In this document: piece after piece, positions 45,650 through 48,751 of the stretch
Position numbering within the stretch: position 1 is the first letter of the stretch
How the letters are laid out: every line of letters starts with the position of its first letter
Origin: a virus
Lineage: Duplodnaviria > Caudoviricetes
IMG/VR virus record: IMGVR_UViG_3300012953_000042
Coordinates: 1 to 53,279 of that record
DNA: 53,279 nucleotides
Direction: 5' to 3' (one strand)
Notes under the pieces: generated by a model
Told to the model about the DNA's origin: nothing
What the model saw: the letters and a program-made list of their open reading frames with translations, nothing else
Database searches by the model: none
Translations under genes and position numbers: made by a program

Positions 45650-46319
45650 GTTCTCCTGTTTTGTAATCAACGAATTTTTTAATGTATTTGGTAAGAAGTC
45701 TAATATACTCACCTTTGTTTCGTTTCTCATAGACAACGCACTCTCCATTTTCAGCCACCATAATAGTAATCAATTTTTTAACTGGAATGCCAGTCATTTC
45801 AAAATACATACATGCGTATGCAGTTTCTTGGACAAAGTAATTCTCTATCCATTTTTCGGGTTTAATTTTTGTTGAAGTCTTAAAGTCTATGACTGCAAGT
45901 TCTCCATCGTATTCTGCTATACAGTCAACTCTACCAGCAAGACCAAGATAATCGCTATATAGTGACTTCTCTAATGCGTGTATATTATTTATACGGTCAA
46001 GGTTAACCTTTGATTGTAAAAATAAAAACTTTGTAGATGGTAGCATATCGCATCCATCAATAGTGCCATTCTTAATATAATATTCTACCACATCATGATA
46101 CTTTGTGCCACGAAAGGTAGACTCTCTAGTAATCTTGTTTGCTTTTTCTTCTCCAACCTTCTTTCTCCAGTTAACAAAAATGTGACGATTGTAAAAACTA
46201 GTGACTGAAGTAATTGAAGGATACTTCTTACCAGATGGAACCGTATAGTATCGAGTTCCATCTATAGTTTGTGCTTCAAGATCAACTTCTTCTTTTAAAT
46301 AATCAAGGTGTGTAAACAT
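45633..46319 (-). CDS. PD-(D/E)XK exonuclease
   Basis: YPSITSV, RGTKYH, LAGRVDCIAEYDGELAVIDFKTS, Q..AYA. Confidence 0.88.
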   Translation of the reverse strand: MFTHLDYLKEEVDLEAQTIDGTRYYTVPSGKKYPSITSVTSFYNRHIFVNWRKKVGEEKANKITRESTFRGTKYHDVVEYYIKNGTIDGCDMLPSTKFLFLQSKVNLDRINNIHALEKSLYSDYLGLAGRVDCIAEYDGELAVIDFKTSTKIKPEKWIENYFVQETAYACMYFEMTGIPVKKLITIMVAENGECVVYEKRNKGEYIRLLTKYIKKFVDYKTGEHGTQE

Positions 46320-47083
46320 TACATATTAAGAGACAATTTAGCAAAGAGATACTTACGAACAAGTCCCGAACGAACTATATCCTCAAGACCGAATTCAATA
46401 GAAGCAAAGTCATCTTCCATTGTACGAATGATTTCCATAAAATCAAGAATACCATTACGTTCATTGGTTTTTGTAAGGTCAGACTGTGATGCATCACCAC
46501 AGAATATGATCTTACTATTTTCACCAACTCTTGTTATTATACTATCAAGTTCATGAAAATTCAAGTTTTGCATTTCATCAACAAGAATGATAGCATTATC
46601 TAATGTAGTACCACGAATGAATGATGTACTCCAAAACTTAATTGTGTCTTGAGTTTTCAATGCACCATAAAGTAACTCAAACTCAGTGTCATCTGACATT
46701 TCAAACATATACTTTACCATATGTTTGTATGGTATTTGATATAAGAATGACTTATCCTCATGGTCACCAGGTAGGAACCCAATCTCTCTAGTAGAAACTA
46801 AAGAGCGAACAATATACACATTCTCATAAGGACTCATCTGATCTAGAACTTCCTTAAGAGCAAGATACAATGCTATAAAAGTCTTACCAGTACCAGCAGC
46901 ACCATAAGCAAAAATATTCTTACCCTTTTTATACTCTTCAAAAACTTTTTCCTGACTCTTAGTTAATGGTTTAATATCAACCATCACATCAGAGTTTACT
47001 GGTTTTTTTCTTTTGAGTTGTTTATTACTCATACTACCAATCCCACTTTGGGAACCGTTTCCATTTCTTTTTTTAGCTGGCAT
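46319..47083 (-). CDS. phoH: PhoH-family protein
   Basis: GAAGTGKT Walker A, IGFLPG, FIRGTTL, VDEMQN, GDASQSDL, DIVRSGLV. Confidence 0.95.
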   Translation of the reverse strand: MPAKKRNGNGSQSGIGSMSNKQLKRKKPVNSDVMVDIKPLTKSQEKVFEEYKKGKNIFAYGAAGTGKTFIALYLALKEVLDQMSPYENVYIVRSLVSTREIGFLPGDHEDKSFLYQIPYKHMVKYMFEMSDDTEFELLYGALKTQDTIKFWSTSFIRGTTLDNAIILVDEMQNLNFHELDSIITRVGENSKIIFCGDASQSDLTKTNERNGILDFMEIIRTMEDDFASIEFGLEDIVRSGLVRKYLFAKLSLNM

Positions 47084-47334
47084 TAGAAACTATAATCACG
47101 ATTTTTACGAACATTAGCACCAGGTTGTTTTGATGCTCTATCTAGAACTTCATTCCAACCAGAAGATGCTGCCTCTCCTGTCCATCTGAACATTTCTTGA
47201 GTTGCTGCAACACCTGCTTGCCAGTCTTTATCCCAATCGGGATTCTCCTTTCTCCATGTATCATAGTCTTTCATAGACATAGAGAGTTCTTTCTTCTCCT
47301 TCGTCTCTTTATGTATTACTGGATATGTTGGCAT
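47083..47334 (-). CDS. Conserved hypothetical protein
   Basis: 83 aa MPTYPV...GWNEVL...PGANV; late promoter CTAAATA at 47356-47362. Confidence 0.75.
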   Translation of the reverse strand: MPTYPVIHKETKEKKELSMSMKDYDTWRKENPDWDKDWQAGVAATQEMFRWTGEAASSGWNEVLDRASKQPGANVRKNRDYSF

Positions 47335-47358
47335 AATTGTTAATCAGTGTAAAATTAT

Positions 47359-47991
47359 TTAGACCCATTCAAGGGCTTCAGATACTGCAGGGAACTGTTC
47401 GGTAAACACCTTCCTACACGCTTCTGCAATGTCCATATGCTCTTTCTGTGTTCCGTGTGCTGATCTTAGATTGATATAATGTATCCATGATCGACAAGAA
47501 CCAGTCATATAGATCTTTGTAGGAGTGCATAATGGTAGTACCATTCTAGCACACTCTTTAGCAACACCTAACTCTAACATTTGATTATACAATGAAAGAG
47601 ATGAACCAAACAAGGTTCCCATTTGCATGTTTAATGTTTCTATTATCTTAGGATCTAAATCATCAGTAGAGTTTTGACGATTCTTACTATCTTGTCTACG
47701 AAGTTTTGGTAATTTAATACTACCTAATTTAGTACTATCAGCATAACGCTGAGAAAACTCTTGAAATGTAAAACTTCTATGACGTAAAATTTGTGCAGCA
47801 ATAGCACGAGTAGTTTCTATCTCAAGAGTCAAACTAGATTGTTCAAATACTGACCAGTGATTATGTTTGATACAGTATTTCAATAGTCCAGAAAACTTTT
47901 CATTGTCCTGATTAGATGGATTAGATACTCTGGCAATATAAGCCATCGTCTTCTCCGCATCAGGAGTTATACTAACAAGTTTTACATTCAT
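47359..47991 (-). CDS. thyX: Flavin-dependent thymidylate synthase
   Basis: HWSVFEQ, RHRSFTFQEFSQRY (RHRX7S motif), ECARMVLP, TQKEH. Confidence 0.96.
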   Translation of the reverse strand: MNVKLVSITPDAEKTMAYIARVSNPSNQDNEKFSGLLKYCIKHNHWSVFEQSSLTLEIETTRAIAAQILRHRSFTFQEFSQRYADSTKLGSIKLPKLRRQDSKNRQNSTDDLDPKIIETLNMQMGTLFGSSLSLYNQMLELGVAKECARMVLPLCTPTKIYMTGSCRSWIHYINLRSAHGTQKEHMDIAEACRKVFTEQFPAVSEALEWV

Positions 47992-48152
47992 TCGTCATCC
48001 TCAAAAACTTCATCGTAGTTTGCAGATGCTCCTACATGCTGCTCGTGATTAGATTGTTTATATGCATCGACATCTGAATAAATTTCAGATTCCAATTCAG
48101 AAACAACTTCTTTTAAAGCCATGACTAAGACTTTTAGTTTGCCCTTATTCAT
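47988..48152 (-). CDS. Conserved hypothetical protein
   Basis: Likely start 48152 MNKGKLKVLV...LESEIYSDVDAY. Confidence 0.7.
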   Translation of the reverse strand: MNKGKLKVLVMALKEVVSELESEIYSDVDAYKQSNHEQHVGASANYDEVFEDDE

Positions 48153-48171
48153 AGGAATTTTCATTTTATTT

Positions 48172-48200
48172 ATTATAACATAAAAAAAGAAGGGTATCAA
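48172..48200 (-). promoter_or_regulatory. Sigma70-type promoter with an overlapping late core
   Basis: TTGATA-17 nt-TATAAT; ATAAATA at 48167-48173. Confidence 0.7.
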
Positions 48201-48208
48201 CCCTTCTT
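48182..48208 (-). terminator. Intrinsic terminator of the riboswitch operon
   Basis: AAGAAGGG-TTGATA-CCCTTCTT followed by TTTTT. Confidence 0.8.
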
Positions 48209-48286
48209 ATACAGAAACTGAATTTCAGCATTTATGATTGTGAGAAAGATAGCAGATGCTACCAAAATCTCAAAAGTTACAATCAT
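48197..48286 (-). CDS. 29-aa single-helix membrane microprotein
   Basis: MIVTFEILVASAIFLTIINAEIQFLYKKG; ATGA overlap with the upstream DUF4278 stop. Confidence 0.65.
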   Translation of the reverse strand: MIVTFEILVASAIFLTIINAEIQFLYKKG

Positions 48287-48408
48287 TTAACAGTTGTAAG
48301 TTCTTTCTTTTGACTTACACCACGGTAAGTTAGATCGACCTTGTTAGTCTGCTGAGTTTTGTTTCTGTTGGTGTCGTATACAACACCTCTGTATGTGACT
48401 TGTGCCAT
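48283..48408 (-). CDS. DUF4278 / GifB(IF17)-like small protein
   Basis: MAQVTYRGVVYD...LTYRGV (two YRGV motifs), 41 aa, AGGAG RBS, downstream of glutamine-riboswitch motifs. Confidence 0.85.
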   Translation of the reverse strand: MAQVTYRGVVYDTNRNKTQQTNKVDLTYRGVSQKKELTTVK

Positions 48409-48470
48409 TTGGTTTGCTCCTAAAGTAGTTGGAATTTGCACCTTTACCTCTTGCGAGGGATCCGTGATTC

Positions 48471-48665
48471 CGTTCCTTCAGTCAACTTGTGCGTCCCCAA
48501 AACATACTGGATCAGTATGTGCTATCACCACCCTTGCTATTTCCAATCTCTCAGATTTATCAGGATTATTACTTGCAGAATCTAATAGTTCAGCAGAGGT
48601 CGCACAGTCAAGTGGTGCTCCGATTACTATTAGACTAAGAAGAATTTGGTACATGAGGATGAACG
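48471..48665 (-). ncRNA. Glutamine riboswitch (glnA-type) aptamer 2, with an ORF in the P2 loop
   Basis: 5' CGTTCA-TCCTCA ... TGGGGA-CGCACAAGTTGACTGAAGGAACG 3'; P1 CGTTC/GAACG and P2 TCCTCA/TGGGGA. Confidence 0.75.
48478..48654 (-). CDS. 58-aa two-Cys protein with a hydrophobic N-terminus, embedded in the riboswitch aptamer
   Basis: MYQILLSLIVIGAPLDCATSAELLDSASNNPDKSERLEIARVVIAHTDPVCFGDAQVD*. Confidence 0.7.
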   Translation of the reverse strand: MYQILLSLIVIGAPLDCATSAELLDSASNNPDKSERLEIARVVIAHTDPVCFGDAQVD

Positions 48666-48669
48666 AACC

Positions 48670-48715
48670 CGTTCCGAGTCGGCTTACTTGCGGTCTGAGT
48701 GTATCAGACTGAACG
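48670..48715 (-). ncRNA. Glutamine riboswitch (glnA-type) aptamer 1
   Basis: CGTTCA-GTCTGA-tacac-TCAGAC-CGCAAGTAAGCCGACTCGGAACG. Confidence 0.8.
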
Positions 48716-48722
48716 TATTGTT

Positions 48723-48751
48723 ATGATAACATAACACAATTATTTAGTCAA
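48723..48751 (-). promoter_or_regulatory. Sigma70-type promoter with an overlapping late core
   Basis: TTGACT-17 nt-TATCAT with extended TG; predicted TSS right at aptamer 1; CTAAATA at 48741-48747. Confidence 0.75.

Follow-up and report, generated by a model that had tools for sequence, protein, structure and literature searches.

Can a riboswitch aptamer hold a protein-coding gene within one of its hairpins and still behave as an aptamer, and what would that mean for the gene? The question is raised by positions 48,471 to 48,665 of the IMG/VR virus record IMGVR_UViG_3300012953_000042 (Caudoviricetes; estimated completeness 25%), the whole 53,279 nucleotides (nt) of which were analysed and are called the window here. 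A first-pass annotation, made from the letters alone, placed a gene for a 58-amino-acid (aa) protein inside the second of two tandem glutamine aptamers that precede a DUF4278 gene. Over this stretch the cultured phages closest to it, at approximately 79% identity, are three Prochlorococcus myoviruses, P-HM2, P-HM1 and MED4-213. As far as the anatomy alone is concerned, we can say with high confidence that the cassette is a tandem glutamine riboswitch of a marine, T4-like cyanophage, in which the terminal loop of the aptamer 2 hairpin has been replaced by a 58-codon gene. The unit spans approximately 530 nt of the minus strand, in the order promoter, aptamer 1, aptamer 2, DUF4278 gene and terminator, and comprises the following features (ORF, open reading frame; SD, Shine–Dalgarno sequence).

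48723..48751, minus strand: sigma-70-like promoter, TTGACT-17-TATCAT, with 10/12 consensus matches and TG before the -10 element; a consensus match only
48666..48717, minus strand: aptamer 1, a short glutamine aptamer, CGUUCA-GUCUG-AUACACU-CAGAC-CGCAAGUAAGCCGACUCGGAACG; sub-threshold Rfam match and pattern search
Between aptamers 1 and 2, minus strand: inter-aptamer linker of 4 nt, GGUU in the window
48654..48665, minus strand: 5′ half of aptamer 2, pseudoknot/P1 strand CGUUCA and stem strand UCCUCA; pattern match, with a stem that covaries
48478..48654, minus strand: nested gene, 58 codons and TGA, a member of phrog_504; frame, selection and profile match
48502..48520, minus strand: 8-bp hairpin within the nested ORF, ACAUACUG-AUC-CAGUAUGU; fold prediction
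48471..48499, minus strand: 3′ half of aptamer 2, UGGGGA stem strand and then CGCACAAGUUGACUGAAGGAACG; codes F-G-D-A-Q-V-D-stop
48409..48470, minus strand: leader and presumed expression platform, 62 nt, with a CCUC-GCAA-GAGG hairpin, a CUUUAG segment and an SD
48421..48417, minus strand: SD of the DUF4278 gene, AGGAG
48283..48408 (ORF 48408..48286), minus strand: DUF4278 gene, 41 aa, MAQVTYRGV...YRG; PF14105 and phrog_5049
48187..48208, minus strand: terminator-like hairpin and T run, of the intrinsic type; sequence scan

The split aptamer and the gene inside it

Both conserved halves of aptamer 2 are present on either side of a coding loop, as the first-pass annotation had described. On the 5′ side, CGTTCA (48665..48660) is followed by the stem strand TCCTCA (48659..48654); on the 3′ side, TGGGGA (48499..48494) is followed by CGCACAAGTTGACTGAAGGAACG (48493..48471), and the two stem strands enclose a loop of 154 nt (48653..48500). 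The nested gene overlaps the aptamer at both ends, again in agreement with what had been read from the letters: the A of its ATG (48654..48652) is the final base of the 5′ stem strand, and its last codons form the 3′ half, with the TGA (48480..48478) lying within CTGAAGG, in the conserved core GACUGAAGGAACG. The loop of aptamer 1, given earlier as 5 nt, is in fact 7 nt long (AUACACU). The window contains a single copy of the 26-nt 3′ pattern and a single copy of the 19-nt junction pattern GGAACGNNNNCGTTCAYCC, and 100 shuffles contained neither; the halves of aptamer 2 are not chance matches. Because the stem strands of the two aptamers differ (GUCUG/CAGAC in aptamer 1, UCCUCA/UGGGGA in aptamer 2), each 3′ half fits its own 5′ half.

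Minimum free energy (MFE) and centroid folds hold both the long-range UCCUCA/UGGGGA stem across 154 nt and an 8-bp hairpin, whose arms ACATACTG (48520..48513) and CAGTATGT (48509..48502) lie two bases 5′ of the 3′ stem strand. A hairpin abutting the stem had been proposed, and its 8 bp are thus recovered in the predicted folds, but it is partly kept in the MY[HQ]ILLSL subfamily only, where it codes AHTDPxC, and no compensatory changes were seen in the rows of the alignment belonging to that subfamily.

Taking as an ORF at least 40 codons with an ATG 6–23 nt after the start of CGTTCA, we found the frame open in 228 of 233 distinct long aptamers, while in the two alternative frames these stretches are interrupted by 1015 and 1553 stops. 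Measured from the C of CGCA, the stop falls at an offset of -5 (26 ORFs), +6 (43), +10 (74) or +13 (81) in 224/228 ORFs; the other four offsets differ, and all stops but one (at +25) lie 5′ of GGAACG (227/228). We calculated the ratio of non-synonymous to synonymous substitution rates (dN/dS) for 669 equal-length pairs of 70–97% identity, after removal of the first two and last six codons. The median was 0.16, with 99.9% of pairs below 1, and differences at codon positions 1, 2 and 3 numbered 5221, 2977 and 11554, respectively. Frame preservation and a dN/dS below 1 across homologues had been set beforehand as a check, and both hold. A BLAST comparison at E < 1e-4 joins 216 of the 220 distinct nested proteins into a single network, and the proteins of first and second aptamers are therefore paralogous. 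Across 59 diverse aligned members the only invariant columns are two Cys (C17 and C51 of the window protein). A profile search retrieved 1033 protein clusters (90% identity) at E ≤ 0.001 among 1447 candidates; the 120 listed of these 1033 include none with a Pfam domain or an informative name. To judge from these comparisons, the nested ORF is a genuine gene, subject to purifying selection, and the earlier impression that the 58-aa product looks real was well founded.

The window protein matches phrog_504 (E 1.8e-06), as does the ORF of phage P-RSM6 (E 3.1e-17), and a longer subfamily of nested proteins matches phrog_13397; both PHROG families are annotated as function unknown, and Pfam holds no family for the nested protein. 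It has a hydrophobic N-terminus, Cys17, Cys51 and a GDAQVD tail that is encoded by the aptamer core. Inspected by eye, the N-termini of the family carry 9–16 hydrophobic residues before the invariant Cys and have an acidic or neutral start (MIE.., MLE.., MYQ..); with no basic n-region, this does not look like a canonical signal peptide. An AlphaFold2 model (predicted local distance difference test score 76.3) contains three helices (residues 2–9, 17–28 and 33–45), with the last residues unstructured. Foldseek comparison of the model with the PDB gave nothing better than E 1.7, and no usable match came from the ESM Atlas.

The same arrangement is present in cultured phages. P-HM2, P-HM1, MED4-213, P-RSM6, P-SSM7 and the single-virus genome AG-345-D19 all have CGUUCAUCC, one or two bases and then an ATG; their ORFs end at the TGA of GACUGAAGGAACG, the ORF bodies diverge widely and GenBank labels them hypothetical proteins. 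By our own regular-expression test, P-HM2, P-HM1 and MED4-213 have ORFs in both aptamers. An ORF in the first aptamer (3′ half CGCAAGUAAGCCGACUCGGAACG) uses a different frame and ends with G-R-K-stop at the UAA of AAGUAA. The two-end aptamer pattern with 160–190 nt between its ends was found in at least 120 viral contigs. So that the split form would not be favoured, a census used a further criterion: 120 viral contigs were picked solely by the opening 23 bases of their DUF4278 gene and read upstream, giving the following arrangements (s, short aptamer; O, ORF-bearing; x, long without an intact ORF).

s-O (the window type): 38 contigs
s-s: 27 contigs
O-O: 18 contigs
O-s: 17 contigs
s-x: 4 contigs
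x-O: 3 contigs
?-O: 2 contigs
s-O-s: 1 contig
O alone: 1 contig
O-x: 1 contig
Truncated locus with an O: 1 contig
Truncated locus with an s: 1 contig
Truncated locus: 5 contigs
No aptamer within reach of the contig end: 1 contig

At least one nested ORF was present in 82/120 census contigs, in either aptamer or in both. On this count, the nested-gene architecture is the majority state of the cyanophage DUF4278 cassettes sampled.

Intact ORFs are not fixed in these loci. Long aptamers without an ORF make up 5/233 distinct sequences; the insert and both halves are kept while the ORF is lost through a missing ATG or an early stop in the second aptamers of L072, L095, L190, L214 and L046, and in L025, and in L040 and L100 the nested ORF ends earlier, at a TAG within the 3′ stem strand. 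A metatranscriptome contig from run X7 joins 48498 to 48657 via nine other letters, a short loop replacing the ORF. Because this close relative has an ordinary short loop, the ORF has probably been gained or lost between near relatives. Contigs from four marine RNA-library runs cover 48470..48685 and part of the DUF4278 gene, with gaps at 48438..48463 and 48698..48723; such contigs cannot show transcription, strand, level or translation, and may stem from DNA, so they were counted neither for nor against.

Outside recognized viral contigs, the exact split-aptamer pattern occurred in five contigs of a species-genome collection, all from metagenome-assembled genomes (MAGs). These are L223 (JBJBBP010000001.1), L225 and L227 (NHGE01...), L226 and L224, and the labels of the MAGs are Synechococcus (a 193,981-bp contig), Euryarchaeota TMED129, Microthrixaceae and ‘uncultured bacterium’. 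They look like cyanophage contigs binned into cellular MAGs. When the nested-protein profile was run against 201 genomes of the family of the Synechococcus-labelled MAG, only that MAG (G001) matched and the 200 others did not; we suspect that the matching 193,981-bp contig is phage DNA. The nested protein thus seems to be confined to phage DNA.

Constraint on the RNA and relation to glutamine aptamers

When 131 nested aptamers were aligned with MAFFT, the bases of the 5′ stem strand were spread across gap columns, leaving four stem pairs that were formally countable; the remaining stem evidence is our own anchored count over 172 distinct stem contexts. In the four formal pairs, 98.8% of cells are paired versus 96.5% after shuffling, and 33 cells are double-changed versus 13.0, with 0/500 shuffles as high. 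Sliding the partner by one to three columns leaves only 34–70% of cells able to pair, and the pair 13-305 is variously CG (43), UA (25), UG (11), AU (1) or other (13). In the anchored count, the contiguous helix fixed at CGUUCA and CGCA has a mean length of 5.41 bp, against 3.95 bp (sd 0.08) for shuffled partners (0/2000 shuffles reach 5.41) and 5.53 bp for the helix of short aptamers, and all four Watson–Crick types occur at stem position 4. A test for covariation had been suggested with the original annotation, and the stem across the ORF does covary.

Codon usage at the junction points in the same direction. Sequences of the census-only set always use GAC for the junction Asp (41/41) and GCA for the junction Ala (41/41), while within the bodies of those ORFs Asp is encoded by GAT 188 times versus 52 for GAC (of 240), and GCA accounts for 109/246 Ala codons. 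The C-terminal tail of the protein tracks the type of aptamer (DAxxD-stop or GRK-stop) and not the protein subfamily: in L205 and L177, a body of the first-aptamer type that sits in a second-type aptamer ends ...CFEDAKVD. These patterns support the view that the halves behave as one aptamer, with a stem that covaries across the ORF and a core that keeps RNA constraint beyond its coding role.

The Glutamine-II crystal structure paper names C1-C5, C17-G18-C19 and G35-G41 as pocket nucleotides (Huang 2019, PMC6698751). The split aptamer of the window holds all the nucleotides named there, as CGUUC, the post-hairpin CGC (CGCA, 48493..48490) and GGAACGG (48476..48470), and its CGUUC strand (CGTTCA, 48665..48660) is able to pair with GAACG (GGAACG, 48476..48471). 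The CGUUC and GGAACG strands are invariant in 131/131 aligned nested aptamers, a set chosen by these motifs; covariation of CGUUC with GAACG could not show, because the sequences were selected in this way.

Two Rfam families were considered, glnA RNA/Glutamine-I (RF01739, ‘Glutamine’; gathering score 35) and Downstream-peptide/Glutamine-II (RF01704; gathering score 33). Natural loop-only relatives with matching flanks served as stand-ins for an aptamer 2 with its loop deleted. The second aptamer of L173, the 3′ half of which is identical to that of the window, scored 36.8 bits against Glutamine-II, above the gathering score of 33. Against Glutamine, other loop-only second aptamers scored 38.1 (L127), 34.2 (L136), 32.2 (L128) and 31.6 bits (L146), relative to the gathering score of 35. 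RNAalifold on 40 short aptamers and their leaders returned the canonical CGUUC/GAACG helix (P1) and the hairpin. A P2 helix of the Glutamine-II type (AGCC/GGCU vs AGAC/GUCU) can be discerned by eye in some relatives, though not in the window. In L130 (3878-3963, minus strand; 41.0 bits) and L189 (9875-9970, minus strand; 38.7 bits), both contigs with two short aptamers, the best Glutamine match given by cmscan is a hybrid: its 5′ half comes from aptamer 1 and its 3′ half from aptamer 2, and the intervening part is taken as a P3 insertion. Since neighbouring aptamers share identical CGUUC and GAACG strands, half-swapped folds, or a GAACG-NNNN-CGUUC linker hairpin, are possible.

Aptamer 2 occupies the 5′ leader of a DUF4278-type gene, the ORF of which begins 62 nt downstream. 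The gene matches PF14105 with 28.4 bits against a cut-off of 25.3 (E 2.2e-06) and phrog_5049 (E 1.5e-14), and its product resembles the N-terminal region of IF17. The YRG...YRG signature is present in 105/121 downstream ORFs of the pattern-defined loci listed (50 short and 55 long, classes set by our own regular expression and not by a Pfam test); ten of the 121 are truncated and six unresolved. An SD-like motif precedes 67/71 distinct DUF4278 starts. Approximately half of the downstream genes (L007–L126) encode a longer DUF4278-like form of 54–56 aa, with a conserved MNTL.. helix start and two Cys between the two YRG motifs, which may form a separate subfamily controlled by this switch.

Folding, translation and the proposed switch

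A ribosome that lands on the nested gene does so on the CGUUCA and stem strands of aptamer 2 together with the 3′ end of aptamer 1, and the ORF then crosses the 3′ stem strand and the CGC linker to end directly 5′ of GGAACG. By this geometry a folded aptamer should leave no room on the RNA for a ribosome that is initiating or terminating. On balance, we lean towards the whole statement that folding and translation at the nested ATG must compete, and that the leader would be a reciprocal glutamine switch with two outputs. This supposes that the split aptamer still binds glutamine. Folded, glutamine-bound aptamer 2 would then cover the 30S site and turn the nested gene off, because that site consists of aptamer strands; once formed, the stem and the glutamine-stabilized CGUUC:GAACG helix would block initiation at the nested ATG. 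The 3′ half would be transcribed approximately 170 nt after the ATG, so that ribosomes could load first, and these early-loaded ribosomes, or ribosomes traversing the 3′ half to the stop, would keep aptamer 2 unfolded. Glutamine riboswitches upstream of gifB/DUF4278 are translational ON switches (Klahn 2018, PMC6212724), which makes the reciprocal reading the simplest. The same fold would turn DUF4278 on, with high glutamine favouring DUF4278 and low glutamine or heavy translation favouring the nested gene. One aptamer could in this way serve two outputs of opposite sign, combining the glutamine level with ribosome traffic. A wider proposal is more tentative, and we would not yet favour it: cyanophages would make broad use of such opposed control by a single aptamer, each cassette holding one nested paralogue or two, and the folded aptamer would hide the landing site of the gene in its own hairpin and free the SD of the DUF4278 gene, so that early in infection the phage could choose between two small effectors by host nitrogen status and translation capacity.

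Several observations weigh against such a switch. Rfam at gathering thresholds returned no match in the whole window: aptamer 1 falls below both scores (29.7 bits for Glutamine-II, 28.1 for Glutamine), and aptamer 2 was not reported even at E up to 10. The missing score for aptamer 2 is expected because of the 154-nt insertion, and these runs confirm the prediction, made at the outset, that standard covariance model searches miss a split aptamer. The fold of the full leader is no more stable than shuffles (z = -0.43), the MFE structure pairs the CGUUC of aptamer 2 elsewhere, and RNAalifold on the 40 short aptamers and leaders found no conserved expression-platform helix. The related sequences share ancestry, so the shuffle statistics given above for the stem overstate their independence. 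Only 72/228 nested ORFs have a GGAG at -16..-5, leaving 156/228 with no SD-like GGAG at this distance. All three bases of the ATG lie in the contiguous helix in 37/172 contexts and none in 57/172; because these 57 leave the ATG outside the helix, strict sequestration of the start codon is not universal. Lastly, a possible CURAAG:CUUYAG pairing at the DUF4278 SD, which a ribosome at the nested stop would open, predicts positive coupling between the two genes and not exclusion.

As to the ribosome-binding motif itself, where a nested GGAG is present it is built from the linker, as GGAACG-GAG-CGUUCA (for example in L008, L011 and L012), and lies 10 nt upstream of the nested ATG, overlapping the 3′ end of aptamer 1; the GGUU linker of the window lacks it.

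Positive coupling is the main rival. Here the split aptamer would be functional, and nested translation would help DUF4278 rather than exclude it: a ribosome at the nested stop would unwind the CURAAG:CUUYAG helix that masks the first SD base, the nested ORF acting as a leader ORF that opens the downstream start, independently of glutamine or in addition to it. In the MFE fold of the window leader, CUUUAG next to the SD of DUF4278 does pair with CUGAAG, the segment of the aptamer core that contains the stop, the partner base is U in 27/27 cases with a UAA stop and is C (14 cases) only with UGA, and the regular position of the stop, 5′ of GGAACG at one of the four common offsets, would suit such a role. 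However, the UGA cases are mostly G-U wobbles, so that this covariation is weak as well as confounded by shared ancestry, the helix is absent from the RNAalifold consensus of the 40 leaders and covers one SD base only, and, since aptamers with a plain loop and no ORF have the segment as well, it is not peculiar to the nested form. We regard this reading as unlikely, if the most serious of the alternatives.

The next possibility is that the split aptamer no longer binds glutamine and that sensing is left to the unsplit aptamer. The long-range stem would then be kept as a plain translational brake or stabilizer of the nested gene, and the 3′ half for the DUF4278 expression platform or for pairing with the 5′ half of aptamer 1. 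Aptamer 1 of the window is intact and adjacent, and the hybrid matches in L130 and L189 make half-swapping possible, but the two aptamers have different stem strands, and each half matches its own partner. The binding-site nucleotides are all frozen, synonymous positions included. The 18/120 census contigs with an ORF in both aptamers, together with P-HM2, P-HM1 and MED4-213 in the regular-expression test, count against loss of sensing because no unsplit aptamer remains there, and one further contig has a single, ORF-bearing aptamer. A decayed sensor is also unlikely, and we place it after positive coupling.

More doubtful is the idea that the gene is a passive passenger. Phage genomes are compact, and a small gene might have been parked in a loop that tolerates insertions and share only the transcript with the aptamer. 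The length of the hairpin loop is indeed free in short aptamers (3–9 nt and longer), and loop-only and ORF-bearing forms coexist among close relatives. The ATG is always at stem position 4–7 and the stop lies in the 3′ strand or core in 224/228 ORFs, and the complete absence of a spacer between ORF and stem argues against this reading. The two aptamer types each use the sole frame that gives an early stop, and the CGUUCA strand is necessarily covered by any ribosome that sits on the ATG. Among the loci read, the protein family is seen in this position only, and its profile matched 1/201 genomes, although each of the 219 ORFs from outside GenBank had been taken from an aptamer loop in the first place. 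That the 58-codon frame is no gene at all, but a chance ORF or mis-assembled repeat, has in its favour only small size and the lack of a Pfam family, and is refuted by the comparative data (frame, dN/dS and 1033 clusters).

Surroundings and related systems

The competing, reciprocal switch remains the reading that we prefer, and it would sit within what appears to be a self-contained transcription unit. The -10 hexamer of the candidate promoter ends 7 nt upstream of the CGUUCA of aptamer 1, and a like TTGACT...TATCAT arrangement is found in P-SSM7 and P-RSM6. A second promoter-like sequence, TTGATA-17-TATAAT (11/12 matches; 48172..48200, minus strand), overlaps the tail of the cassette terminator, and the next minus-strand ORF is at 47988..48200. 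The minus-strand neighbours at 46319..47991 resemble phoH (46319..47083) and thyX (47359..47991), in agreement with the PhoH and thymidylate synthase annotations in matching sequences and typical of T4-like cyanophages.

Tandem glnA/Downstream-peptide aptamers before DUF4278 genes are known, and have already been noted in T4-like cyanophages (Weinberg 2010, PMC2864571; Klahn 2018, PMC6212724). According to McCown 2017 (PMC5473149), phages rarely use riboswitches, and no more than two glutamine aptamers are reported there from cyanophage genomes. The present cassette resembles glutamine riboswitches in its CGUUC, CGC and GGAACGG strands, covarying hairpin, tandem layout and downstream family (PMC2864571, PMC6212724, PMC6698751). 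Yfr6 of Prochlorococcus, a transcript of approximately 250 nt with a Downstream-peptide aptamer and a short DUF4278 ORF (PMC2864571, PMC6212724), is likewise a small stand-alone unit, but its ORF lies downstream of the aptamer and not inside it. What sets the cassette apart from other glutamine riboswitches is that the hairpin loop is a gene of 49–75 codons, that start and stop codons are aptamer nucleotides, and that the halves lie approximately 160–250 nt apart, are phage-borne and go undetected by covariance models.

Other sensing leaders also contain translated ORFs. The leader of mgtA, which senses Mg2+, has the short ORF mgtL, and translated upstream ORFs reportedly lie beside a B12 switch in M. 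tuberculosis. In these leaders translation of the ORF competes with other folds of the RNA, as it would here. They are, however, short sensor peptides in the expression platform, where the rate of translation matters, whereas here a conserved protein (dN/dS 0.16, two invariant Cys) is encoded inside the ligand-binding domain. Group I and II introns can carry ORFs in peripheral loops, such as the homing endonuclease genes of phage T4 introns, the start regions of which can be masked by RNA structure, and tmRNA has its tag ORF inside. The likeness is a coding stretch that bulges as a loop from a structured RNA, with a long-range helix at its base; the differences are that the host RNA here is a small-molecule sensor and not a ribozyme, that the ORF encodes no mobility enzyme, and that its ends overlap the conserved core instead of staying within the loop as in the introns. 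Our literature search found no published account of an ORF inside a glutamine aptamer, though earlier reports or their supplements might mention long hairpin insertions.

Aptamers are usually treated as compact and non-coding, yet in approximately two thirds of the cassettes sampled a conserved gene fills the hairpin, which makes this a clear example from nature of selection on protein and on RNA structure acting upon the same stretch. The nested architecture predicts a contest between ribosome and ligand for a single RNA, and cultured systems exist in which it could be followed, namely P-HM2 or P-HM1 on Prochlorococcus MED4, and P-SSM7. Surveys based on covariance models under-count riboswitches whose loops hold genes; if the proposal is true, riboswitches would be common in marine phages and would have been missed because genes split their aptamers. 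It would also link a phage family of small proteins (at least 1033 clusters) to host nitrogen status, encoded beside a relative of the glutamine-synthetase inactivating factor IF17.

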